Source of the DNA: Candidatus Heteroclostridium caecigallinarum | Lineage (GTDB): Bacteria > Bacillota > Clostridia > Christensenellales > CAG-314 | NCBI GenBank assembly: GCA_904419725.1 | Contig: CAJFSP010000001.1 | Span: 193,814 to 257,813 of the forward strand | Length of the DNA stretch: 64,000 bases | Direction: 5' to 3' | In this document: piece after piece, positions 37,470-64,000 of the stretch | Layout of the letters: each line of letters begins with the position of its first letter | Position numbering within the stretch: position 1 is the first letter of the stretch | Notes under the pieces: model-generated | Told to the model about the DNA's origin: nothing | Databases searched by the model: none | What the model saw: the letters and a program-made list of their open reading frames with translations, nothing else | Translations under genes and position numbers: made by a program

Positions 37470-37503
37470 AAAAACAAAGCGCGGAGACCTTCTCCGCGCT
37501 TTG
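37470..37503 (-). terminator. intrinsic terminator closing the sipW/tasA-like operon
   Basis: The minus strand reads AAGCGCGGAGA AGG TCTCCGCGCTT followed by TGTTTTTT, 52 nt after the stop of the 1198-aa gene. Confidence 0.8.
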
Positions 37504-37554: not shown

Positions 37555-40500
37555 TCACCTCACTTCAATCCTGTTAGCACCCGCCAGACTTTCGCCCAAA
37601 CGGCTATCGTTCCCTGAATCATAATTACCGGACACATATCCGCCGGAACATACCGCCGTATGGCTGCTCGCGATAATTTCGTTAACTGTAATTTCGGCTC
37701 CGACGCCGTCCCATGTAGATATTGCGTTTCTGCTACAAGAAGCGCCGATAGCCCCGTTTATATAGTAAGGATATAAGTTTTGCCCAAAAATAGTAGTACC
37801 ATAGTGCCGCTCGCTGACGCCGATAAACGTGCCGCCGGAAATCTGTACATTGTGATTGGTAGGCACGGCGTTGAAATACAATCCCGAGCGCGTGCCTTTG
37901 AACTCACCGCCGGAAATGGTAAGGCCGTTTCTTTCAGACGACGCGTGATTATACAATACACCGTTAAATCCGCTGAAATTGCCCCCGCTAATGCTGACGG
38001 CGTTTTCAGTAAGGGCAGCGTCCAACATCAAACCGGAAGACCGTGAATCCGTTGTCCCCGTGCCCGTAAACGTGCCGTTTGTAATAGTGAGTTCAACGCG
38101 TCCTTCGCCGTACCAAACGCCATTGCCGTAATCAGTGTCTTTGCTGCTGAACGTGCCGCCGTTGATTGTGACGGAAGAACCCGCGTCACCGCGGTATTCG
38201 ACAGTCATGCCCGCTTCCGCACCGGTGACAGTAATATCGCCACCCGCGCCGTCTTCACCGCCGCGAGGAGTAAACGTAACGTCAACATATTCAAACACCG
38301 AAAAAGCCGCCTGACCTTTTACATCAAATGTCCCGCCGTAAATATTGGCTTTCGCCTGATTGGTCGAAGTACCCATGACAAACGCACCGCTGCCGCTTGA
38401 GCCTTTGCCGAAAGTGCCGCCGTAAATGTTGGCTGTGCCGCCGTACATTTTGAAGGCGTATGACGCGGCGGGACCGGCAAGCAGTCCGTTTTTTTGGGAA
38501 CTATAGTTATCGTTGCCGTCAAAGTTTCCGCCCCATATATTAGCGGTGCCGTCGCGGACAAGAATACCTTCACCTTGCGCCGCCGAATAAGTACCGTTAT
38601 ATACCGTCAGCGTTCCGCCGCTGACTTCAATCGCGTGGCCGCCGGTTCTGCTGAGCCTGTAATTCCAGTTATCGCCGTTTGCCTGCTGCTCATAAAATGT
38701 GTTAAATAACATATCGCCTGTGGTCGTGATTGTAATATCGGAAGGTGAGTTCGTACTTCCATTTCCCATGTAAACGTCGCCGCCGGAAACATAAAGACCG
38801 CCGCCACTGGTATTGCTAATATCACTCTTAAAAATAGTGACTTTCGTGTCAATACCATCCGTACCTTCAACACGCACGGCAAAACTTCTTATCTCATAGT
38901 TGCGATATCTCTCGTTTTCGTCATAATCCCCCTGATTCTCAATATTCGCCACGCCGGTATGATTTACGTTGAACGTGCCGTTTGCCGTCAGCGAGCCGCC
39001 CTGAATATACACGCCGTTGTATATGTTGACATTAGCGTTGCCGCCCGCCTGATTGCCTTCTTCGTCGGGAGGAGTCACCCAGCCATAAGCTTCGTTTATA
39101 GTGCTGGTGATCTCCGCCGTTGTTTCTTCATTTATCGTCAGATTGCCGCCGTTGATGTAAATCGCCGTGCCGTTTTTCGACGTGAGCGTGAACTCTGTCG
39201 TCGAAATATTTATACTGGCGCCGCTTCTGGCGGTGATGCCGAGACCGTCAGTCGTTATGGTCGCGCTGCCGCCCGCAATGGAAATGTCGCCCCCCTCGGA
39301 ACTGATTGCCGCGCTTGACAGAAGATTATCCGTCATCCCTACAATAGTACTATTATATTCGCCGTCAACGCTGATATTTCCGCCATATGCCAATATACCG
39401 GCGGAATACGTTCCGTTGACGTCTATCACGGTTGAGCCGCAGCAGTCGACCGTGCCGCCTGCGGAGTAAATGCCGCGGGCATAACTGCCGACCATGTCAA
39501 ACAAGCAATTTGTCGCCTTTATCGTGCCGCCGCCCGAATATATGCCGTAAATACTGTTATAATTGCCGCCCTGACCGACATTGAAAACCGTGTCGGAAAC
39601 TGTCACCGAGCCTGCCGCGCCGCCTGACGTTTCCGATGAAATGCCGCGTGTGGAAGAGCCTGCGATTGTGAAAATTATTTTATTTTGCGCGCTGCCCGTG
39701 ACAGACAGCGTGCCGCCGCTGACGGAAATGCCGTTCATATAATTTCCGGTCAGGTTAAATCCGATAGCCGACGACGTGGAAGAGACGTACAGTTCGCCGC
39801 CGGTCATGGATATCGCCGAACCGTTGTCCTGCGAAGAAGCAAACTCCGCCGTTATTTTCTTTGTAAACGACACGTCGCCCGACACACGCATAAGCCCGCC
39901 CGACACCGCTATCGTGTCGCCCGTCTGCGAGTAAAAATCACCGCTGGCGACGCGCAGATATTCATCCTCCGAAACAGAGCCGTAAGAAATGCTCACGCAT
40001 TTACCCGCGCCGTGCGCCTGAAAACTGCCGACGCCGTTTTCAACCGCCATGTATCCGCCCGTGGCGTATACGCAGTAAGTACTGTCATTGCCGAAATATG
40101 AAACGTAATCGCCGCCGCGCACATACAGGTTGCCGCTGTTCATCTGAATGGCGGCGTACGTCGCCGCGCTTTGGGCGGCGCTCATGACGCCGTTGTAGCC
40201 GTAAACGGTAACCTCAATCTCTTCCGCTCCGCTGCTTTCAGCTGCGGAGTACACCACGCCCGAGCCGTCAAAAGAACGGTAAAGAGTGTAGGTATAATAA
40301 AAATCCGCGCTGCCGTTGTCCGCCGCTATCAGCGAGTTGGAAACGCTGTCGTCCGACACGGTAAAATAGAGATAAGCGTCCTTTGAAATCCCTATTGATG
40401 ACGCGTCGGCGTCGAAATAGAAATTGCCGTTTACGCTGTGCTGCGGCGTGCCTCCGTCTGACGGCGCGCTACCCACATTGGTTACCGCGGGAATAATGAC

Positions 40501-41151
40501 AGGCATATTTTCTTGCCGTTCGGTATATCCGCCGTCGTTTTTTTCATAATACGCCACGCTTGCCGTACCGTTTATTTCGGCGCCCGCTTTATTGCGCCAA
40601 ACGCCGTCTGTCTGATAAGCGTATTCGGAAGAATAGACAGCCGAGTCGCCGGCGAGGTTTTCGCCGTCTCTCGGGCCGCTTTCAAACAGCCCTGCCGCCA
40701 CAGTCAGCGTGCCGCCGCTTATGCGCAGAACGCTGCCGACAGGGTTATAAAAACTGCCGGTCTGCTTTTCCGACGTGTCGATAATAGTGAGTCTGACGCC
40801 TTCCGTCACGTTGAGCATAGGCTCCCTGTTGTTTCGCTGCAATTCATGGCCGTTGAGGTCTATCGTCAAATCGGAATTGACATCGGACACACTGCCGGTG
40901 ATGATAAGCGGATTGTCGACGTCGTCAGACACTTTGATATTGCTGTAACCGTTTTCGATTGCGGAGAAAAACTCGTCAACCGAGTGGATTTCAACCTGTT
41001 CAGAGACGATATATTCCAGACTGCCGGAATATTCGCTGCCAGAGGTCAACTCTTTTGAATATCTGCCCTGCGTCAGCGAAACGCTCATGAGCGTGACAAT
41101 AAGCAGAGATATCAGCGCGCAAAGCGCGGCGTTTCTTTTTCCGACAGTCAT
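37555..41151 (-). CDS. 1198-aa secreted right-handed beta-helix repeat protein with a SipW-class N-terminal signal
   Basis: The N-terminus is K/R, a hydrophobic helix (AALCALISLLIVTLMSV), then SLTQGRYSKE. More than 20 irregularly spaced GG[TSDEN][LFI]-type rungs follow (ISGGTLTV, VSGGTLSV, INGGNLTI, IYGGTFGK, ISGGNFSG, ISGGTFIG ...). It has no LPXTG, SLH or C-terminal TM. The RBS GAAGGGGGTGG precedes it and its start overlaps the upstream stop as ATGA. Confidence 0.85.
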   Translation of the reverse strand: MTVGKRNAALCALISLLIVTLMSVSLTQGRYSKELTSGSEYSGSLEYIVSEQVEIHSVDEFFSAIENGYSNIKVSDDVDNPLIITGSVSDVNSDLTIDLNGHELQRNNREPMLNVTEGVRLTIIDTSEKQTGSFYNPVGSVLRISGGTLTVAAGLFESGPRDGENLAGDSAVYSSEYAYQTDGVWRNKAGAEINGTASVAYYEKNDGGYTERQENMPVIIPAVTNVGSAPSDGGTPQHSVNGNFYFDADASSIGISKDAYLYFTVSDDSVSNSLIAADNGSADFYYTYTLYRSFDGSGVVYSAAESSGAEEIEVTVYGYNGVMSAAQSAATYAAIQMNSGNLYVRGGDYVSYFGNDSTYCVYATGGYMAVENGVGSFQAHGAGKCVSISYGSVSEDEYLRVASGDFYSQTGDTIAVSGGLMRVSGDVSFTKKITAEFASSQDNGSAISMTGGELYVSSTSSAIGFNLTGNYMNGISVSGGTLSVTGSAQNKIIFTIAGSSTRGISSETSGGAAGSVTVSDTVFNVGQGGNYNSIYGIYSGGGTIKATNCLFDMVGSYARGIYSAGGTVDCCGSTVIDVNGTYSAGILAYGGNISVDGEYNSTIVGMTDNLLSSAAISSEGGDISIAGGSATITTDGLGITARSGASINISTTEFTLTSKNGTAIYINGGNLTINEETTAEITSTINEAYGWVTPPDEEGNQAGGNANVNIYNGVYIQGGSLTANGTFNVNHTGVANIENQGDYDENERYRNYEIRSFAVRVEGTDGIDTKVTIFKSDISNTSGGGLYVSGGDVYMGNGSTNSPSDITITTTGDMLFNTFYEQQANGDNWNYRLSRTGGHAIEVSGGTLTVYNGTYSAAQGEGILVRDGTANIWGGNFDGNDNYSSQKNGLLAGPAASYAFKMYGGTANIYGGTFGKGSSGSGAFVMGTSTNQAKANIYGGTFDVKGQAAFSVFEYVDVTFTPRGGEDGAGGDITVTGAEAGMTVEYRGDAGSSVTINGGTFSSKDTDYGNGVWYGEGRVELTITNGTFTGTGTTDSRSSGLMLDAALTENAVSISGGNFSGFNGVLYNHASSERNGLTISGGEFKGTRSGLYFNAVPTNHNVQISGGTFIGVSERHYGTTIFGQNLYPYYINGAIGASCSRNAISTWDGVGAEITVNEIIASSHTAVCSGGYVSGNYDSGNDSRLGESLAGANRIEVR

Positions 41152-42671
41152 ACGCCACCCCCTTCACCGCTTTGAGACGCCTGGGTAAACACCACCGTCA
41201 TATCGATGTAATATGTTTTGCTGAGCGAATTGTAAATATTATATACATGCTGCCCGCCTTGTTGCTGATTGTCGTAAGTATCGTAAAACGGGCTGTCCGG
41301 CAATTCCGCGAACGAAATGAAATACACGCCCTCATAACCGCCGTTTATGCCGCCGTTTTCGTTGATATCAAGCGACTGGTAATAGTTCGAGCATATGCCG
41401 AAAACGCCGTCGTTTCCGCCAAGCGACGCGCCACCGAAAGCGTAAGCCGAGCCGTCGCCGCTGAAATAGTTTTCTATTTCATGCACGAAATTCACGGTGG
41501 ATTCGCTTATCGGAGCGACGTGGAAATAACCCGTCGAAACGCTGCCGTCATATTTTCCGTCGGCGCCGACGCCGAAGGTTTTAACGACGCGCACGGTGGT
41601 CGTCGCGTCACGCGTTGTAAATCCGCCGCCGTTAAAAACGTAAGTCGCCGCTTCGGCGTCGAAATGATAACCCAGCACTTTCGCGCCGTTGAAAGTATAA
41701 CAGTCTTCACCTGCAACAGGCGTAAGATAATCGTCGTAATTATCCTTGTTTCCGTCGCTTCGCGAGCCGCCTTCGGTGTACCACTGCTGACCGTAATCTA
41801 TATTGTCGACCTTTTCGGCAAGCGACATATACAAAATCAGGGTCTGTTCTTTGTCACGCGCGGCGGCAAAGTCCAGCAAACCGCCGCCGAGATTGATATC
41901 TATCGTGTAAAAGGTGATTTCTTTTTCAAGGTCAAGATACAACTGCGTCTGCAAATCGCTGTCGTTTTCGCCCCTGCGGAAACCGACGGAATAACTCACC
42001 GTTTCGTTTGAGGCGGAAATGGTTATTCCGTTGCCGCCAGCGCCCGTGGCGGAAACATGCCCGTCTTCCGAAACGGAGCCGTTCACGCTGAGCGTTTCGT
42101 CCGCGGCGCCCGGAACGGAGTTATAATCCACGGACTTTGCCGTTTCGATTGTTCTTTCGCCGGAAGCAGGCTGCCTGACGCCGTTTGTCTCGACGTATTC
42201 GTAAATATTATCGCCGTTGGCGTCCGCCACCTGATAAACCAGGTTGCCGAGCACATATTGCGGAGTAACCGCCGTCTGGGTGTCGCCGTCGTTTACCGCC
42301 ACGACTTGCAGCACCATGTTGTCGGCGAGTTCTCTCGGGATATACAGCCGCAATGTGGCGAGCAGACCCACGTCGCTAATGCGCCGGACGCCGCCGTCGG
42401 CGTTCTTTTCAAAATTGCGCAAAGTAAAACGCACCGTGCGCGCGGTCCCCTGCGCGCCGCCCGATTCCAGCCAGTAGTTGGCGTTGGTGAAAGACGTGGA
42501 AGAAATGTCGTCTATTTCATACGAAGCGATGTAGCGGCTGAGAGTAGACTGCACGTCGCCGCTGGTGCCCGTCGAATAGCGTGAAAAAGTCACGCCTGTG
42601 AACAACACGCTCACGGCGAGCAGATAGCAGAGATATGAAACCAACGGAATTTTTTTAGTTTGTCTTTTCAT
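41148..42671 (-). CDS. 507-aa secreted protein of unknown function with a SipW-class N-terminal signal
   Basis: The N-terminus is MKRQTKK, a hydrophobic helix, then GVTFSRYSTGTSGD. The mature part starts with a TasA-like F-x-L-x-N segment (RTVRFTLRNFEKNADG). It overlaps the signal peptidase gene by 17 nt. Confidence 0.8.
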   Translation of the reverse strand: MKRQTKKIPLVSYLCYLLAVSVLFTGVTFSRYSTGTSGDVQSTLSRYIASYEIDDISSTSFTNANYWLESGGAQGTARTVRFTLRNFEKNADGGVRRISDVGLLATLRLYIPRELADNMVLQVVAVNDGDTQTAVTPQYVLGNLVYQVADANGDNIYEYVETNGVRQPASGERTIETAKSVDYNSVPGAADETLSVNGSVSEDGHVSATGAGGNGITISASNETVSYSVGFRRGENDSDLQTQLYLDLEKEITFYTIDINLGGGLLDFAAARDKEQTLILYMSLAEKVDNIDYGQQWYTEGGSRSDGNKDNYDDYLTPVAGEDCYTFNGAKVLGYHFDAEAATYVFNGGGFTTRDATTTVRVVKTFGVGADGKYDGSVSTGYFHVAPISESTVNFVHEIENYFSGDGSAYAFGGASLGGNDGVFGICSNYYQSLDINENGGINGGYEGVYFISFAELPDSPFYDTYDNQQQGGQHVYNIYNSLSKTYYIDMTVVFTQASQSGEGGGV

Positions 42672-43194: not shown

Positions 43195-44694
43195 TTAAGC
43201 GACATAGGCGGAAAAGCCTATGTTGAGCGTGTAAGTCGCCCCGTTTTCGCCCGCGACGGTATCCACGGCGTCATTGTGCGCCCACTTCCATTCAAGTTCA
43301 AACACCGAATCCGAATTGGCTTCGATTGTAAGTCCGCCCGCACCGACGCTCAGCGGCTCTACGCCGACATAATTGCCGTCGGCGCCGACGATATACGCGC
43401 CGTCGCGTTTGAGGCGGTAAGTTATGTCGATGCCGTAATCGTTCGCCTCGGTGAAAGTGAACGAAAACACAAGCGCGTTGTCGTTTCTGTTTTCAAATGT
43501 GAAAGCGTAAGTGCCGTCCTGCCCCGGCGCGATTACCGTGTCGCCGAACACTTCGTTCATAAACACGGGGATGTTTTCCATGTCGTCCCACGACCTGCCG
43601 TCGGCGTCGGCAACAAACAGAGTAGGCGCGTAGTCGCCGCCTGTTGACCTGGTGAGAAAATACGCCCCCAGACAGACGGACAGAGCCGTCATTACGACAA
43701 GCAAAATGATGAGCACCAGCAGCAAAACAGGCGTGCGGCGCAGAGTGGCGACATAAGTATTGCGCATTGAAAGCACGTTGTCATGCCCGTCGAGATAGGC
43801 GCTCTTCACGCCGTCACCGTAAAAATAGACGCTTTCGTCTTCTTCACGGAAATCGCCGAGAGCCTTGTCTTCGGCGTCGTACCACACGCCGCGGCGCACT
43901 TTGCCTATGCGGTTGCCCTCGCCGTCAAACACGATGCCGCGCGCCGGCGCTTTAACCCCCGCCGCCACGGCAGGCTCTGCGGCGGCGGAGTCTTCCGTTT
44001 CTGTATATACAATAGGCGGAACCGCCGCTTCACGCTCAACGTACACCACTTTCGGCGCCGTCTTGCGCGGCTTTTTGAATATGCCCGCCTGGTCTTTCGG
44101 TTCATAGTTTTCATCGGGAACAAAACCGTTAAGCCTCATGACGTCGTCAATAAGACTCACGGCGTTTTTAACCTGTCTGTCCGACGAAAGTTTTATCATC
44201 ATCGGCGTTTTGGCGTAACGCCTGACGTCGCTGTAATCTTTGTGGTGATATTTCTGTTCGCTGTATTCACCAGGGCTGAGCGCCAAAAACAAGCGCAGGT
44301 ATCCGCCCACGATGCAAAGTTTAGCCAACAGTTTTTTGCCGCAGCTGAAAGTTTCGCCCCCTCCTGTTACACGGGCGCGCAGCGGCTTTTTGCGCTTTTC
44401 GGCGGGACGATAACTCAAAAAGGCGTTTTTTATCGCGTCATAACGCCTGCCCGTGATATATCCCGCTTCGCCCATGCGCAGGGCAAATTTGGGAGCCTTG
44501 CCCGTAACGGCGGAAGGCACCGTTGTTTTTTTGTCGGGCGAAAGGTCTTCGCCCTGTTTAGCCGACAAAGTTTCGTACACGGCAAAATCAGCCGACTCCG
44601 TCGGTTTCGTCTGAGTTTCTTCGTTGAATTCCGTCAAATCGGACGGCGCGGTCATCTCTTCCGCCGCCAATTGATTTTGTTCTTTTTCTGCCAT
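43195..44694 (-). CDS. bitopic membrane protein: unknown cytoplasmic domain, one TM helix and a TasA-like ectodomain
   Basis: The start is set at the ATG at 44694 (MAEKEQNQ). The central TM is LLLVLIILLVVMTALSVCLGAYFL. The C-terminal ~130 aa carry VIAPGQDGTYAFTFENRNDNALVF and WKWAHNDAVDTVAGENGATYTL. These match the 228-aa protein (DELDTFAGENVATVSW) and the TasA-type APGD..F.F.N.G motif. Confidence 0.75.
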   Translation of the reverse strand: MAEKEQNQLAAEEMTAPSDLTEFNEETQTKPTESADFAVYETLSAKQGEDLSPDKKTTVPSAVTGKAPKFALRMGEAGYITGRRYDAIKNAFLSYRPAEKRKKPLRARVTGGGETFSCGKKLLAKLCIVGGYLRLFLALSPGEYSEQKYHHKDYSDVRRYAKTPMMIKLSSDRQVKNAVSLIDDVMRLNGFVPDENYEPKDQAGIFKKPRKTAPKVVYVEREAAVPPIVYTETEDSAAAEPAVAAGVKAPARGIVFDGEGNRIGKVRRGVWYDAEDKALGDFREEDESVYFYGDGVKSAYLDGHDNVLSMRNTYVATLRRTPVLLLVLIILLVVMTALSVCLGAYFLTRSTGGDYAPTLFVADADGRSWDDMENIPVFMNEVFGDTVIAPGQDGTYAFTFENRNDNALVFSFTFTEANDYGIDITYRLKRDGAYIVGADGNYVGVEPLSVGAGGLTIEANSDSVFELEWKWAHNDAVDTVAGENGATYTLNIGFSAYVA

Positions 44695-44876
44695 CGGTCT
44701 TACCTTTATCCGCCATGGCGGACACACAATACACACAGTATGCCGTCCTGTGCCCCGCTCCTGTCGGAACGGGGTAGGACGCACAGGGCAACCGCCCCTG
44801 AAAACGCCCTGCCTCCTATGCCACACAACGGCGGCACGGCATTTCACAAAACCGTTTCAAACGGCCGAGTAGTCAG

Positions 44877-45563
44877 TTATGCCGGTATTTCAGATGCCTG
44901 AACGGCGGTATAAGACACATCCCAACTTACAGTGGCGACGTTTTCTCCCGCAAAGGTATCAAGTTCATCCATATCAACGCCGTCGTCACTTGCGCTATAT
45001 TTAGTCGTCCATGTAACAACAGCATAAATGCTGATGGATTCTCCGACACCAAGCTCATCGCCGATTGCGTTACCAGAAGATATGCCGTTATTCAAATAAT
45101 CATTTGTCCAACTGGCCTCACTTCCATAATACAGCGCAATGTCAAACAAACCTTTCACCTGTTCTTCCGTTTTTACTGATGAAGGCTTATCCTGTATGGA
45201 CGCAAAACTATCGCTGTTTTGATATGTAAGCACCAAATTTCCAACAGAAATAGTTATTGAAGCCGCAACATCGCCTTCATTGGTGATGGTCGCTATCAGC
45301 TGAGGAGCAGTGGAATTTGAAACATCAGCTCCCGGTGAATCTTCAAAACTTGACATGCTAGGCGACAGCCCTTCATCAAAAGTAACCGTTATTTCATCGG
45401 CACCAGGACCATTTATTTTCCACGCCGCCACGCCGGTGCTCGCCGAACCGTTGCCGCCGCTTGTGTAGCGCGCAAAGGTACTGCCGAGAAAACAGCAGCT
45501 GATGAGCGTCAGCGCGATAAGAGCGATGAACAGTTTTGCCCCTATACTCTTTCTTTGAGTCAT
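44877..45563 (-). CDS. small secreted TasA/camelysin-like protein (candidate major fibre subunit) with a SipW-class signal
   Basis: 228-aa ORF with a strong RBS (AAAAGGAGG). The N-terminus is MTQRKSIGAK, a hydrophobic helix, then GSTFARYTSGGNGS. This parallels the T-[LF]-A-x-F-[TS]-D type of SipW-dependent signals. Confidence 0.75.
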   Translation of the reverse strand: MTQRKSIGAKLFIALIALTLISCCFLGSTFARYTSGGNGSASTGVAAWKINGPGADEITVTFDEGLSPSMSSFEDSPGADVSNSTAPQLIATITNEGDVAASITISVGNLVLTYQNSDSFASIQDKPSSVKTEEQVKGLFDIALYYGSEASWTNDYLNNGISSGNAIGDELGVGESISIYAVVTWTTKYSASDDGVDMDELDTFAGENVATVSWDVSYTAVQASEIPA

Positions 45564-53396: not shown

Positions 53397-53799
53397 AATA
53401 ATCCTCCGTTCTTCTATATATAGCATAAACTCTAATGTGGATTTTTTCAACAAACTTTTGTTTACATTATGTCAACTTTGACTTTACAATATCAAAATAT
53501 CATTGTTTTTCTAAAGCATAAGGTCACAAACACAATGTTTTGTGACTCATTGTCAGAGGCGACGGAATTCGTAAGAAGCGGAGCGCGGGATACTCGCTTG
53601 GCGTTTTGTGAGACATTCAGGTAAACGGCGGGGAAACGGCGTTGCTATATCAAATCGATCTGTTTGCCTGTGGCGGCGCCGACAAGTTGGCTGGCTTACG
53701 CGATTGTTGCGCGAAAGCGCGATCGCGTTACGTGAGAATCCTGGCATTTGCGGCAAAAAATAATACGAACTCGTTTTCGGAGTTCGTATTATTACCTAA

Positions 53800-53890
53800 T
53801 GGCGGAAGCGGTGGGATTCGAACCCACGTGCCACGTTCGTGACAAAACGATTTCGAGTCGTTCTCGTTATGACCACTTCGATACGCTTCC
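53800..53890 (-). tRNA. tRNA-Ser (anticodon CGA)
   Basis: Acceptor GGAAGCG/CGCTTCC, anticodon stem AACGA/TCGTT with loop CT-CGA-AA, a long variable arm, a T-arm GGTTCGAATCC and an encoded CCA. The hairpin AATAATACGAACTC/GAGTTCGTATTATT at 53758-53795 follows it. Confidence 0.9.
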
Positions 53891-54000
53891 AGATATTCCG
53901 TTTGATTTCAGCCGTTAAATTATACAAATTAAACGCGATGTTGTCAATGAAAAACCCGCGGCAAAAGAAAAAGTCGGCGTTTAAGCCGACTTGTTTTTTG

Positions 54001-60358: not shown

Positions 60359-61216
60359 TTATTCTTCCTGAGCCGCCTGCATGACCGCCACATAATCGAC
60401 AGGCTGATACTTGTCGTTTTTGACCAGTTCCGCCTTGTTCATGACTTCCGCAATCAGTTCCACCGCGTATTTTTTGCTGCGGTCTGATTTGACTTTGAGA
60501 GCCAGCGGCACGAACTCGTATTTTTTCTTTTCACCGAGGTCTTTCTGGTGATATTTCGTCTCGGCGTAATCTTTCGGGTCGAGCGCCAGGTGCAGTTTCA
60601 CCGTTTTGCCCGCGATACTGATTTTAGCGAGATATGTGCTCTTGAACTTGAATATGTCTATCGTCTTGGTGAGCCTGTTGTTGACCTTCTTGTAGCTCAT
60701 CAATTCATTTTTAAGCATATTGTAGATAGCCTTGTTGTCATCGTCCGCTTCGAGAATCTTTTCGGCGAAAGTACGTCTTTTGCCTATCGGTATATTCAGG
60801 GCAGGACGTTCTTCCGTCACGGCCGCGGCCGATTCTTCCGCCGGAGCAACCGTTTCTTCGGCTTGCGCTTCTTCCGCTTCAACGGCGGCAGGTTGTTCCT
60901 CCTCTTCAGCGGCTGGCTGTTCTTCCTCAACCGCTTGTTCCGAGGCTTCTTCCACGGCCGTCTGCGCGGAAACCTCTTCTTCCGCCTCTGCCGCGCCGTC
61001 GGTCACTTCGACCCCGATTGACGCCGACGTATCGGCCGATTGCGCCACCGCCTGCGCGTCGCTGTCAGCCTGAACCTGCGGATTTTCCTGTTCGGCGACG
61101 TCTTCGCCGTCGTCTATGTTCTTTTTAAGGCACAAAAACACAACCATAAAAACAATGGCAACAACCAGCATCGCGAGACCGACGATGGTGTTGGTGGTAA
61201 ATTGCAGACCTGCCAT
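60359..61216 (-). CDS. membrane-anchored protein: N-terminal TM, acidic E/A/Q-rich linker and a C-terminal domain paralogous to the cytoplasmic domain of the 43195-44694 gene
   Basis: The start is set at the ATG at 61216, behind the RBS GGGAGGAG. The C-terminal segment is YLAKISIAGKTVKLHLALDPKDYAETKYHQKDLGEKKKYEFVPLALKVKSDRSKKYAVELIAEVM. It aligns with LLAKLCIVGGYLRLFLALSPGEYSEQKYHHKDYSDVRRYAKTPMMIKLSSDRQVKNAVSLIDDVM. Confidence 0.75.
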   Translation of the reverse strand: MAGLQFTTNTIVGLAMLVVAIVFMVVFLCLKKNIDDGEDVAEQENPQVQADSDAQAVAQSADTSASIGVEVTDGAAEAEEEVSAQTAVEEASEQAVEEEQPAAEEEEQPAAVEAEEAQAEETVAPAEESAAAVTEERPALNIPIGKRRTFAEKILEADDDNKAIYNMLKNELMSYKKVNNRLTKTIDIFKFKSTYLAKISIAGKTVKLHLALDPKDYAETKYHQKDLGEKKKYEFVPLALKVKSDRSKKYAVELIAEVMNKAELVKNDKYQPVDYVAVMQAAQEE

Positions 61217-61339
61217 GATACTCCTCCCATGCATAGATATGCATAATTTTTTTATATTATAGCACAGGCAAAATGTCAATACAATAATTTTGAAAAAGTT
61301 TTTTAACAAAAAAACACGCTTTTCGCGTGTTTTTGACAT

Positions 61340-61981
61340 TTATTTTGTCTTGTTGAAGCGTTCGCCGCCATATTCCGTATTGTATCCCCTGTTGACCTCC
61401 GGACGCAAAGCGTTGGGAAAAAACGTGTCCGCCTTGATATCGCGCACGATTGCCTGCAATTCGTTGGCGATGTAGTACGGGTCGGTTATGTCGTACAGCA
61501 CGGCACGCTGTGTTTCGGCGGTTATGTATATGTCGCCAACTTTAAGCATCCTGTCTGTCAGCCCCACCCTGACGGTAACGTTTGTGATTTCGGCGAAATA
61601 CATAAACTTCAAGTCGATAATAACGCCCCTGCGTATAATAACGCGCTTGTCGGTGACAACATACCGTATGTTGCCGACTTCCGCCGCCGAATGAACTATA
61701 TTGAAAATCCATATCCACACAGGCGCCAGATGCACGGCGAAAAACAGCCACAAAAACCAAGGCACGCCTTCAAGCTGCGTCGCCATAAACACTATTATGG
61801 TGACGTCTATCGCCAGCCACAGAATGACGAAAGGCAGCATTTTCATCACGGCTGAAATGATATAAGCCGATTTTTTCGGTTTGCCGCGCCACAGCACCTT
61901 TTCGTCGCTTGTCAATATGTCGTCGATATCATTGCTGAGCATCGGGTCTTTTTGCTGAAAATACTTTTCTTTTTCCTTCAT
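61340..61981 (-). CDS. bacterial PH-domain (DUF304/YdbT-like) membrane protein
   Basis: The start is set at the ATG at 61981, behind the RBS AGGTGG. EKVLWRGKPKK is followed by two TM helices and a C-terminal bPH-like segment (YVVTDKRVIIRRG). Confidence 0.7.
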   Translation of the reverse strand: MKEKEKYFQQKDPMLSNDIDDILTSDEKVLWRGKPKKSAYIISAVMKMLPFVILWLAIDVTIIVFMATQLEGVPWFLWLFFAVHLAPVWIWIFNIVHSAAEVGNIRYVVTDKRVIIRRGVIIDLKFMYFAEITNVTVRVGLTDRMLKVGDIYITAETQRAVLYDITDPYYIANELQAIVRDIKADTFFPNALRPEVNRGYNTEYGGERFNKTK

Positions 61982-62058
61982 AACCCACCTTTCCCGCAGT
62001 ATATCACACAAACGTGCCGTTTTCAATATTTACGCGAAAATCTCCCTCGCCGCAAAAA

Positions 62059-62086
62059 AGAAGAGCGGAAAATTCCGCTCTTCTTA
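62059..62086 (-). terminator. intrinsic terminator
   Basis: AAGAAGAGCGGAA / TTCCGCTCTTCTT stem, followed on the minus strand by T6. Confidence 0.8.
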
Positions 62087-62098
62087 ATAAAAAGCAAG

Positions 62099-63811
62099 TT
62101 ATTCGGTCACGTCATCAGTCGAAGTTGTTACCTGAGTAAACCAATCTGACGGCGGACCGCTAGGCGCTTCGGCAACAGGTGTGCCGCCGATTTCGGTGTA
62201 ATATTCATTAACATCAACCATGCCCGTTTCGTCAAAATCGAAAAGTTGCAGCTGATATACTCCGCCTTCGAAAACACAATTTTCAGCGGTATAATCATTA
62301 GTAGAAGAATAACCGACCGAGATCGCACACCAGACATTTTCAAACGCAACATCTTTAAGCATTACAGACGAATCACTCATTCTGCTGCCGCCTATTTGTA
62401 CGCCCCATCTGTAATTTGTTATGACGCAATTTTCAACATTAAGGGTTATCCCGGTGCCGTTAACATTGCCGCTCAATCTTATCGCCTGATAGTTAGAAGT
62501 GGCGGTCGCAACCAATTTTATTCCCTTAACAGTATATGTAACATTTTTGACGCTACCGCCACCGAATTCCACTGTGCCGTTAACAGTAACATCACCCATG
62601 CCGATTATAGTCGCCCCTACGGCATTGCTGAGTATAATATCGGTGTTATAAGTGCCTTCAAACAATGCGAGTATCGCGTTTTCAGTATCAGTCATCTCAG
62701 CGATTGCCTTGCCGATGTTAGTTGGCGTTGCCACGACAATTTTCGACGCCGTGTTGAACTGAGCGTCCGCCGTCCAGATATAACGTGTAAGCGCGCCCTC
62801 ATTGTTCACAAAAGGCATTGTCATGACTATCGCTTCCTGATTGAATGTTTCAGGAACTTTAACTTTGCCGCTGAGCGTGGTATATTCTACTTCTTCATCG
62901 CAGTATATCTGCAGCTGTTCGGCAAACGAGCAGTTTTCGTCAACGGTGAGCACCGTGGACGGAACAGCCCAGTTTCTGCCTACCACGTCGATATTGACGC
63001 CGCCCCAGCCGTTGCCGCTGGTAGTCACGTTGTTGAGCGTAACGACTGAGTCGTTGACAAGCACGCCCACGCCGTTGTTGTCAGAAGCGGTGATGTTCGA
63101 AACGACAACAGTGCCCGCCTGCGCGATGTTTATGCCGTGCGCGGTATCGCTTCCACCGTTGCCCATGGAAGCGGTTTTGCCGTTTTTGACGGTGAGATTG
63201 CTGATGTTGACGTCAGCGCCGTTGGTAACGGTGATTATGGAAGTTTTTCCGTGCGAAGTGCCGGCGGTAAATCCGTCCTCACTCTCCGGCTGCAAAATAA
63301 CGCCTTCTTCGCTTTCACCGATTATCGTCAGATTGCGGTCGATGTACACCTGGCTTGCCAGATTGTAAGTGCCGTTTTCCACGAAAATCGAACCGTTGGC
63401 GGTATCGGCAACAGCGGCAAGCAGTTCAGCCGCCGTATCGACCGTCACGTCGGCAGGGCTGACGTTTACCGTGCAGGTGGCGGTTTGCTCACCGGCGGCG
63501 GCGGTTATCGTGGCGGTGCCCGCCGAAACAGCCGTCACTGTAACGGTCGCCCCCTTATTGGCGCTGAGGCTTATCACGCCTGAGCCCTGGGCGTCAACCG
63601 TCCATGTGATTTCGTCGGTGCTGTCGCCGGGTTCGACAGTGGCTGTCAGCTGAGCGCTTGTCGCCTTGCTGCCTGTAACGACAAGTTCGACGCTTGAACT
63701 GTTAATCGAAATATCCGTCGCGGGCACGTTGTTGCCGCACGCGGCAAAAATTCCCAATGAAAAAATCATTGCCAACGCGAGCACAATGCCCAAGAATTTT
63801 TTAGATTTCAT
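62099..63811 (-). CDS. surface lipoprotein with a Big_2 Ig-like domain and two right-handed beta-helix modules
   Basis: The start is set at the ATG at 63811, behind the RBS GGAG. The signal is MKSKKFLGIVLALAMIFSLGIFAAC (lipobox). A Big_2-like segment follows (LTATVEPGDSTDEITWTV...VTAVSAGTATITA), then NosD/pectate-lyase-like rungs (ISNLTVKNG, VSNITASDNNGVGVLV, LNNVTTSGNGWGGVNI). Confidence 0.8.
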   Translation of the reverse strand: MKSKKFLGIVLALAMIFSLGIFAACGNNVPATDISINSSSVELVVTGSKATSAQLTATVEPGDSTDEITWTVDAQGSGVISLSANKGATVTVTAVSAGTATITAAAGEQTATCTVNVSPADVTVDTAAELLAAVADTANGSIFVENGTYNLASQVYIDRNLTIIGESEEGVILQPESEDGFTAGTSHGKTSIITVTNGADVNISNLTVKNGKTASMGNGGSDTAHGINIAQAGTVVVSNITASDNNGVGVLVNDSVVTLNNVTTSGNGWGGVNIDVVGRNWAVPSTVLTVDENCSFAEQLQIYCDEEVEYTTLSGKVKVPETFNQEAIVMTMPFVNNEGALTRYIWTADAQFNTASKIVVATPTNIGKAIAEMTDTENAILALFEGTYNTDIILSNAVGATIIGMGDVTVNGTVEFGGGSVKNVTYTVKGIKLVATATSNYQAIRLSGNVNGTGITLNVENCVITNYRWGVQIGGSRMSDSSVMLKDVAFENVWCAISVGYSSTNDYTAENCVFEGGVYQLQLFDFDETGMVDVNEYYTEIGGTPVAEAPSGPPSDWFTQVTTSTDDVTE

Positions 63812-64000
63812 TGTCTTTCTCCTTTTAAGAATATTACGTATCCACAAAACCCTCCGCGTAAAGACGGAATCCTGTGTAACGCAAGGTTATTTTACCCACC
63901 CCCCCTGTAAGATGTCAACAAAACTGAATAAGTTTGCGCGGCCCTTGTTTTTTGTGGGGCGGGTTATACACAAAAAGGCGCTGCCCCATTAACGGCGGCG

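Follow-up and report, generated by a model that had tools for sequence, protein, structure and literature searches.

A bitopic TasA-like protein as a candidate membrane-fixed base of a donor-strand fibre in Candidatus Heteroclostridium caecigallinarum

Introduction

In the fibres of TasA, AbpA, BsaA and Tafi, the freed N-terminal strand of one subunit inserts in the beta-sandwich of the next (PMC9674648, PMC9245690, PMC11580942, PMC12337348). In the model for BsaA of C. perfringens, growth takes place at the base: the most recent subunit takes up the growing polymer's strand while its signal still tethers it, SipW then frees its own strand, and the polymers are held in the membrane by an unidentified factor (PMC11580942). 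[quoted passage not shown] The anchor role of TafF is itself a model. Here we analysed a window of 64,000 nucleotides (nt) from Candidatus Heteroclostridium caecigallinarum (GCA_904419725.1, contig CAJFSP010000001.1, 193,814-257,813 of the forward strand), in which all coordinates below are positions unless a locus is named, and in particular a bitopic protein of 499 amino acids (aa) encoded on the minus strand at 43195-44694. Its gene stands in a cassette with two SipW-type signal peptidase genes and three genes for exported proteins. We see about an even chance that the bitopic protein is an unprocessed subunit paralogue forming the membrane-fixed base of a donor-strand fibre, and it would then be a bacterial counterpart of the proposed haloarchaeal anchor TafF.

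The likeness to TafF is one of both locus and layout. TafF lies in a pilin locus whose further genes specify a tip protein, an adaptor, a regulator and a dedicated signal peptidase; TafF1 and TafF2, compared here by description, join a pilin-like jelly-roll to a membrane span in such a locus (PMC12337348); and TafF is proposed to take the donor strand of the last subunit and to end the fibre (PMC11821415, PMC12337348). It differs in being archaeal, with pilins exported by the twin-arginine translocation (Tat) pathway, in the three C-terminal TM helices of the Haloarcula protein, and in lacking a large cytoplasmic domain. The concept of a membrane-anchored pilin-like terminator therefore already exists for archaeal Tafi.

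Other described proteins share some of these features. TapA, encoded in tapA-sipW-tasA of B. subtilis, is an accessory of a SipW-dependent TasA fibre and has been implicated in anchoring and in nucleation via strand complementation (PMC10151520, PMC9245690), but it is secreted, processed by SipW, built on a macroglobulin-like sandwich core, and donates a strand (PMC9245690), whereas the bitopic protein is an integral membrane protein with a subunit-like outer domain. With TasA, CalY and BsaA (PF12389, 'peptidase M73/camelysin') the locus has in common that TasA is the best fold match of the bitopic protein, that SipW-type peptidase genes lie alongside, two of them in the operon described here, that the signals of the cassette subunits end in a small residue with an aromatic residue at P2', and that several paralogues occur within one operon (PMC11580942); it differs in that the cassette has no sequence match to PF12389 and the bitopic protein is not secreted. 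The DUF5305/TafG proteins are likewise modular, with a beta-sandwich outside the cell, an alpha/beta domain in the cytoplasm and a span of the membrane, and their gene is paired with a signal peptidase gene (bioRxiv 10.64898/2026.01.04.697558). The bitopic protein, however, has no DUF5305 match, one TM helix as opposed to two or three, and a sandwich related to fibre subunits.

Results

The TM segment of the bitopic protein resembles a signal peptide that has lost its cleavage site. By BLASTP and hidden Markov model (HMM) alignment it aligns to the signal peptide of the 228-aa protein encoded next to it, with which it shares a T..S.C helix face and an Arg just past the hydrophobic core. The two part at the cleavage end, which is an invariant T-x-A↓R-Y in the 228-aa family versus the consensus L-S-A-Y-F-L-T-R-S in the family of the bitopic protein. 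In the BLASTP register Leu or Met takes the place of the Ala at -1; the HMM register has Thr or Ser there and Phe at -3; and in either register there is no aromatic residue at +2. Type I signal peptidases need small residues at -1 and -3, and we infer from the alignments that the segment stays unprocessed. A cleavable N-terminal signal that frees a donor strand, as expected of a subunit, is absent, the hydrophobic segment being internal. When all open reading frames (ORFs) of the window were scanned for a hydrophobic stretch followed by [TSQY][FQY][AGS]R[YF], only the 228-, 507- and 1198-aa proteins of the cassette were returned, and the bitopic protein was without such a signal.

The ORF extends over 499 codons from an ATG at 44694 to a stop codon at 43195-43197. 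A GTG at 44847, which would add 51 codons, is also possible, and the exact start is left between the two because the N-termini of homologues are variable, disordered and of low complexity. About 322 aa precede the hydrophobic stretch (aa 324-347) and 152 aa follow it. The AlphaFold2 monomer model, built from an alignment of 61 family members, has a mean predicted local distance difference test (pLDDT) score of 79.8. It consists of a disordered N-terminus (aa 1-67), an alpha/beta domain A (aa 68-210, pLDDT >95), a disordered linker (aa 211-248), a domain B of eight short strands in hairpins (aa 250-320, pLDDT ~95), one TM helix (aa 323-349 in the model) and a beta-sandwich ectodomain (aa 358-498), modelled at pLDDT 88-93 in its core and 65-76 in its first 40 residues. 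Domain A and the ectodomain are the best conserved parts, with mean identities to the protein of 62% and 60%, against 48% for domain B.

The ectodomain probably faces outwards. An N-in/C-out orientation is indicated by the positive-inside rule, by the missing N-terminal signal peptide and by the tails of distant relatives, which have only a short K-rich stretch ahead of the TM segment. Lys and Arg at the TM flanks average 2.7 on the N side versus 0.8 on the C side, and the N side is the richer one in 57 of the 61 family members. An initial annotation of the locus had described a single TM helix with about 330 aa before and 130 aa after it, an unknown cytoplasmic domain, and neither an N-terminal signal nor the RY motif of the three exported proteins, and had made its reading depend on the TasA-like module lying outside. 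The single helix and the missing signal and motif are borne out, the outer location is supported, the first length is roughly right and the second is too low. The N-terminal part has no significant match in Pfam, NCBIfam or PDB sequences, and the TM, ectodomain and neighbour strings quoted in the annotation were all found exactly as quoted.

The cassette consists of six co-directional genes in the order sipW1, the 228-aa gene, the bitopic gene, sipW2, the 507-aa gene and the 1198-aa gene (Table 1). The last four abut or overlap, the start of sipW2 abutting the stop codon of the bitopic gene, and by its sequence the cassette is one operon bounded by a promoter-like site and a terminator. Both SipW1 and SipW2 match the archaeal/endoplasmic reticulum (ER)-type signal peptidase I model and the Bacillus SipW model (E ~1e-20), and the first position of sipW1 in the cassette is kept across related loci. 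In Pfam and NCBIfam scans of all six proteins only the two peptidases were matched. The family of the 228-aa protein counts 731 matches, all without Pfam annotation, the sole source name among 120 listed being 'hypothetical protein', and its residues T29, A31, R32, Y33 and W48 are invariant. In its model (pLDDT 79) residues 29-46 are disordered and the remainder is a beta-sandwich, with the AbpA bundling pilin 7ueg, an archaeal TasA homologue, as best PDB fold match (E 0.011, probability 0.57). The signal and N-terminal segment of the 507-aa protein match the 228-aa family profile (1.2e-4), and its gene is syntenic in every locus whose contig reaches that far; pairwise comparison of the 507-aa protein with the bitopic protein gave no match. 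Neither the 507-aa nor the 1198-aa protein has a Pfam or PDB sequence match. The predicted mature N-terminal peptides of the 228-, 507- and 1198-aa proteins are RYTSGGNGSASTGVAAWKI, RYSTGTSGDVQSTLSRYIASYEI and RYSKELTSGSEYSGSLEYIV, respectively.

In structure searches with the whole model of the bitopic protein the top PDB fold match was TasA (5of1_B, E 9.7e-4, probability 1.0), and the TasA fibre 8aur_A was also matched (E 0.017). A viral fold library gave just generic jelly-roll, tail-fibre and C1q matches. At the sequence level the TasA family PF12389 was matched neither by the bitopic protein (E up to 1) nor by its 61 orthologues (E up to 0.1), it is absent from the 25 families listed for 94 distant ectodomain relatives (E up to 0.01), and it was not matched by the 228-aa family or the subunits of other cassettes. 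Searches of PDB sequences with the bitopic protein, both family profiles and the 507- and 1198-aa proteins returned nothing significant. We conclude that the ectodomain and the 228-aa subunit probably belong with the TasA superfamily at the level of fold, outside the TasA Pfam family. Motifs of the ectodomain are W369, IAPG, FEN.N, YRLKRDG, EW.W and D..DT.AGEN. In both families a helix that separates the last two strands carries a W.W..(N)D..DT..GEN motif (43198-43300 and 44880-44960, minus strand). The motif has a high share of conserved Asp, Asn and Glu; it may be a site for metal (Ca2+) or for strand docking. Ca2+ sites have been described for AbpX and cannulae.

The kinship of the ectodomain with the secreted subunits emerges through intermediate sequences. 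In BLASTP the bitopic protein and its 228-aa neighbour share two short segments only, namely the TM segment against the signal peptide (E 0.002) and the C-terminal D..DT.AGEN motif (E 0.006); a relaxed profile-profile alignment (hhalign) is colinear across the sandwich, through W, (A/S)P(G/S), N.(G/N), W.W, D..DT..GEN and the last strand. A 195-aa subunit with an AKY signal in one distant locus (L047) matches the diverse ectodomain profile at 2e-18, the profile of the lineage of the bitopic protein at 2e-12 and the 228-aa family profile at 1.6e-15; after removal of the signal and the N-terminal strand the values are 3e-19 for the ectodomain profile and 1e-5 for the 228-aa profile. The protein P0317 joins a cleavable subunit-type leader (FAWA↓KYVTS...AKW) to an ectodomain-type sandwich; against the ectodomain profile it reaches 1e-22 (1.84 billion proteins searched), and against the neighbour profile 4e-10. 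When the ectodomain profile was run over the 5063 ORFs of the fetched loci, the best sub-threshold matches were the adjacent ARY/AKY subunits. Since the L047 subunit and P0317 match both profiles, we conclude from these sequences that the secreted subunits and the ectodomain are distant paralogues. The paralogy with the 228-aa protein that the initial annotation had read directly from shared motifs is supported in this indirect way, the direct pairwise and profile test having failed.

The family of the bitopic protein comprises 95 clusters at 90% identity, none of them named or with a meaningful Pfam match. Among GTDB species representatives, whose loci are labelled L001 onward, an orthologue was found in 39 species-level loci, all of uncultured Clostridia and including Ca. 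Gallimonas, Borkfalkia, Fimimonas, Protoclostridium and Scatosoma. Of 40 species-level loci, 39 are colinear with the cassette, showing the six genes in one order as far as their contigs extend. Domain B, the TM segment and the ectodomain are present in all orthologues (L001-L039); domain A is missing from about a quarter of them (L031-L038 and others). The ectodomain profile reaches much further, with 1219 representative clusters (50% identity) at E <1e-3 and 613 at <1e-10. Nearly all are proteins of 190-350 aa in which a short charged tail precedes the only TM and a variable linker joins this to the C-terminal ectodomain, and part of them carry domain-B-like hairpin repeats ahead of the TM. 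Among the TM-bearing members [AGS][RK][YF] follows the TM in only 4 of 126. The family is without a Pfam model, and among ten clusters looked up the sole source name was 'hypothetical protein', given for one of them.

Five distant members were studied in their genomic context. In L042, a low-GC Clostridium-like locus, an ARY subunit is followed by the bitopic gene, a SipW gene overlapping it, and SRF, SRY and SRF proteins; L045 has two ARY subunits, a bitopic gene with a B-like domain, SipW and ARY proteins; and L048 has the same six-gene cassette, orthologous to the one described here, with a bitopic protein that has a cytoplasmic tail of a mere 14 residues. The pairing of bitopic and peptidase genes is kept in these three at ~30% identity. 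In L047, SipW and an AKY subunit precede an ectodomain protein with a cleavable signal, a C-terminal TM and a KK tail. L040, from Saccharibacteria, has an AKY subunit, the bitopic gene and AKY proteins. In contexts long enough to judge, SipW and ARY/AKY-signal proteins lie beside the ectodomain gene, and in L040 no SipW was found within 10 kb. From these contexts the conserved feature appears to be a subunit-like sandwich on the outer membrane face, tethered by either end. As judged from the sequences, tethering looks like the selected property and the cytoplasmic domains look like lineage-specific additions.

Two of these loci merit separate mention. The ectodomain relative of L047 (7001-7774 in that locus) is tethered inversely, which recalls Haloarcula TafF. 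At 9064-12952 of L040, in a metagenome-assembled genome (MAG) of Candidatus Saccharibacteria (candidate phyla radiation), the system is present in reduced form: besides the AKY subunit there are a bitopic ectodomain protein of 246 aa, a TM protein of 170 aa and an AKY protein of 661 aa that has Listeria-Bacteroides repeats.

For domain A no sequence match was obtained in Pfam, NCBIfam or PDB, and none of the 50 PDB fold matches shown is attributable to domain A or B, judged from alignment lengths. Domain A recurs at the C-terminus of small proteins, behind a TM and an acidic linker: one is encoded in the same window (Table 1), and in L001 (6339-7025) such a stand-alone gene lies beside the regulator of the cassette. 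A profile and architecture search returned 25 small TM-tethered proteins only, none with an informative Pfam domain. These stand-alone copies suggest that domain A is a mobile membrane-tethered cytoplasmic module. A Rad50 signature or Walker-B-like identity (E 0.07) was rejected, there being no Walker A lobe and no such match with the family profile. For domain B weak Bflower_2 and PRC-barrel matches were obtained (best E 0.003 to 1e-4), all below curated cut-offs, and these are taken as resemblance of beta-hairpin repeats and not as membership.

Discussion

By analogy with the described systems we infer fibre formation, strand exchange and a subunit order for the cassette as follows. The 228-, 507- and 1198-aa proteins have long signal peptides ending in T-x-(A/S/G)↓R-Y, which both SipW peptidases would cut, leaving a free N-terminal RY...W strand on each subunit. 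The freed strand would insert in the beta-sandwich of the next subunit, as in TasA, BsaA, AbpA and Tafi (donor-strand complementation). The bitopic protein would offer the same type of sandwich outside the membrane and accept the strand of the last subunit at the cell-proximal end. With its cleavage motif lost and ~320 cytoplasmic residues ahead, it could, as we propose, not be released, and having no freed strand to donate it would end growth and fix the fibre in the membrane. With the 1198-aa protein as tip, the fibre would continue through the 507-aa adaptor and the 228-aa shaft to the base. The 1198-aa protein, with an RY strand followed by Gly-rich repeats, would be a donor-only tip and the bitopic protein an acceptor-only base; this would explain why the bitopic protein alone is without the RY motif and why tethering is kept whatever the topology. 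The same logic is known from PapH of P pili and Mfa2/FimB of type V pili, in which a subunit paralogue joins the polymer, cannot pass it on, and so determines how long the fibre becomes and attaches it to the envelope, although by unrelated folds and machineries, at the Gram-negative outer membrane and through chaperone-usher or lipoprotein pathways.

The initial annotation had suggested a TapA-like nucleator or anchor. A permanently tethered base subunit, acting as anchor or terminator, appears to fit the comparative sequence data better than a TapA-like nucleator; the anchor half of that suggestion is retained, and the TapA-like nucleator found no specific support. Assignment to the TapA family was rejected, as there is no N-terminal signal and no TapA entry among the 50 fold matches shown. 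The further idea of the annotation, that the cytoplasmic domain might link assembly of the fibre to a process within the cell, is conjecture, and in the orthologous cassette of L048 the tail has just 14 aa.

Several observations weigh against a membrane-fixed base subunit. That the cassette makes a fibre at all is a prediction from its genes. The hhalign comparison of the bitopic protein with the 228-aa family is insignificant (probability 10-15%). The TasA likeness claimed in the initial annotation holds as the best match to a solved structure and fails as likeness to a sequence family: the similarity is weak (TM-score 0.33-0.37, 12% identity), generic jelly-rolls (CUB, PliG, Ena3A) score almost as well, and no cassette protein matches PF12389 or the TasA-related NCBIfam models. 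A passive anchor leaves the conserved domain B and the accessory domain A unexplained; that they might act in localisation, in regulation or as a mechanical stop is a guess. A possible alternative cleavage site, L-x-A↓Y-F, lies three residues upstream, with Ala in 39 of 61 sequences. Finally, the abutment with sipW2 and the kept gene pairing are equally expected of an accessory subunit of the peptidase.

This last point leads to the main rival reading, which we hold somewhat unlikely and in which the bitopic protein is an accessory subunit or assembly platform of SipW2 that docks with its outer sandwich on this peptidase and presents or holds substrates for cleavage and polymerisation. In function it would then be likened to DUF5305/TafG or to Spc3/SPCS3, the single-pass subunit of the eukaryotic signal peptidase complex; an SPCS3-like reading has no support in the fold-search list. 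Besides the abutting genes and the pairing in L042, L045 and L048, the ER/archaeal type of SipW and the fact that only one of the two cassette peptidases is paired with a bitopic gene speak for it, and DUF5305 proteins of comparable layout have been proposed as signal peptidase I accessories in TasA-like loci (bioRxiv 10.64898/2026.01.04.697558; PMC11821415). Yet no Pfam DUF5305 match was found, the single TM contrasts with the two described for DUF5305, and among the 50 fold matches shown TasA comes first and no signal-peptidase-complex chain occurs. The ectodomain is moreover homologous to the substrates, as expected of a subunit paralogue, and in L040, where no SipW was matched within 10 kb, the bitopic gene and AKY proteins are still present. 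The roles of SipW2 accessory and base subunit are not mutually exclusive. A membrane-tethered nucleator, whose juxtamembrane segment (aa 348-369, ...RSTGGDYAPTLFVADADGRSW) donates a strand such that fibres start there and grow distally, seems to us very unlikely. That segment is positionally equivalent to the RY...W strand of the subunits, is well conserved (Y355, A356, P357, F360, A362, G366, W369) and is modelled at lower confidence (pLDDT 65-76), and TapA nucleates TasA via strand donation (PMC10151520); but it is without the invariant R-Y of the subunits, the monomer model places it in its own sandwich (E358-362, E368-375), and both the BsaA base-growth model and the Tafi model place the tethered subunit last (PMC11580942, PMC11821415).

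The cytoplasmic domains, large, conserved and folded, raise the prospect, in our judgement a slim one, of a transmembrane sensor or regulator that responds to free subunits or fibre load and signals inwards. Anti-sigma factors of the RsgI type are what such a sensor would be likened to. The occurrence of domain A as a stand-alone membrane-tethered protein, once beside the cassette XRE regulator (L001), the conservation of that divergent regulator upstream, and weak Sigma_reg_N matches in 3 of 94 relatives would agree with it. Most members of the ectodomain family, however, have a short K-rich tail only and no cytoplasmic domain, so that the core function cannot be signalling; many orthologues are without domain A, and no known signalling domain was matched. 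The same domains, folded and conserved, would be wasted if the TM were an internal signal peptide that SipW cuts near L-x-A↓Y-F, releasing the 150-aa sandwich as a minor subunit, which we regard as most unlikely of all. The alignment of the TM with the signal peptide of the neighbour, the small residues at 343 and 344, a Phe346 at P2' that recalls the P2' Phe of TasA (PMC10269814), and the cleavable ARY/AKY signal of a few family members, for example P0317, are compatible with cleavage; however, 10 of 61 sequences have Leu or Val in place of Ala344, the substrates' invariant T-x-A-R-Y is absent, and the L047 relative, with a cleavable N-terminal signal, adds a C-terminal TM to stay tethered.

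Taken further, one may speculate that the cassette represents a branch of the TasA superfamily not described before, common in Clostridia and extending to Saccharibacteria, that makes a sortase-free and chaperone-free Gram-positive pilus of tip, adaptor, shaft and base. In Gallimonas/Borkfalkia-type lineages the base would have acquired its folded cytoplasmic domains, which could let the cell control capping and fixing from inside, or could couple the fibre mechanically to the cytoplasm; or else the base and SipW2 could form a bacterial two-subunit signal peptidase complex like Sec11-Spc3. As a whole this picture is unlikely in our estimate. The role of TapA in B. subtilis is debated and the holding of TasA-type fibres on bacterial cells is an open question, for which the ectodomain family offers a concrete and testable candidate for the membrane anchor of the BsaA/TasA type. 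As the cassette is absent from Pfam and NCBIfam, a probable surface-fibre system goes unseen in the present annotation of common uncultured gut Clostridia, among them MAG lineages of the chicken and human gut such as Ca. Gallimonas and Ca. Borkfalkia. By sequence search the folds of the fused cytoplasmic domains are new, and these domains raise the possibility of control from inside the cell. A literature search for a bitopic TasA-like anchor in bacteria turned up the archaeal Tafi papers only; in the literature searched, neither a bacterial counterpart nor the ARY/AKY-signal cassette, the fused cytoplasmic domains or the ectodomain family with its 1219 clusters was found described.

Features of the locus and its surroundings

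The coordinates of the cassette and of related features of the window are collected in Table 1.

Table 1. Bitopic gene, cassette and related features, as positions in the 64,000-nt window
Feature	Position	Strand	Basis
Bitopic protein, 499 aa, whole gene including stop	43195-44694	-	ORF call, AlphaFold2 model
Ectodomain, aa 350-499, predicted extracellular jelly-roll-like beta-sandwich	43198-43647	-	AlphaFold2, conservation
TM helix, aa 323-347, apparent degenerate copy of cassette signal peptide	43654-43728	-	BLASTP, HMM alignment
Domain B, aa 250-320, beta-hairpin repeats	43735-43947	-	Model; kept where domain A is missing
Domain A, aa 68-210, alpha/beta, basic, accessory module	44065-44493	-	Model, orthologue comparison
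Promoter-like site upstream of sipW1, TTGACA-17-TATACT, 11/12	46526-46554	-	Consensus match only
sipW1, ER/archaeal-type signal peptidase I, 234 aa, C-terminal charged coiled-coil tail	45779-46483	-	TIGR02228 4.5e-20, NF046067 6.7e-20
228-aa secreted protein, signal ...GSTFA↓RYTSGG, candidate shaft subunit	44877-45563	-	Signal motif, family profile, model
sipW2, second ER/archaeal-type signal peptidase I, 179 aa	42655-43194	-	TIGR02228 6.5e-22
507-aa exported protein, signal ...VTFS↓RYSTGTSG, candidate adaptor or minor subunit	41148-42671	-	Signal motif, synteny
1198-aa exported protein, signal ...LTQG↓RYSKELTSG then Gly-rich repeats, candidate tip adhesin	37555-41151	-	Signal motif, repeats by eye
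Intrinsic-terminator-like hairpin, 13-bp stem and T-run, just past the 1198-aa gene	37475-37503	-	Sequence
Divergent XRE/Cro-type helix-turn-helix (HTH) regulator	46720-47100	+	Pfam HTH_26 4e-9, HTH_3 2e-7
Domain A paralogue, 326 aa: N-terminal TM, acidic Glu/Ala/Gln-rich linker, C-terminal domain A	60359-61339	-	E 7e-30

Both SipW-type peptidases of the operon are conserved in all related loci, and the C-terminal charged coiled-coil-like tail of SipW1 (…AELARKDEEIARLRAIVERQ…) is also present in L048. The Gly repeats of the 1198-aa protein, such as GGTLTV and GGELYV, suggest by eye a right-handed beta-helix adhesin, and its orthologues are about 1000-1400 aa long. The XRE/Cro HTH regulator keeps its place in seven related loci, with homologues upstream of sipW1 in L001, L004, L006, L027, L028 and L029; its position divergent from sipW1 recalls that of sinR beside tapA-sipW-tasA in B. 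subtilis. The domain A paralogue is adjoined by a bPH_2 (bacterial PH) protein and a 582-aa Big_2 surface protein (61340-63847, minus strand). Elsewhere in the window GC is ~0.51, and it falls to 0.40 at 52001-54000; this drop adjoins a tRNA-Ser (53800-53890), which points to a possible island or insertion.

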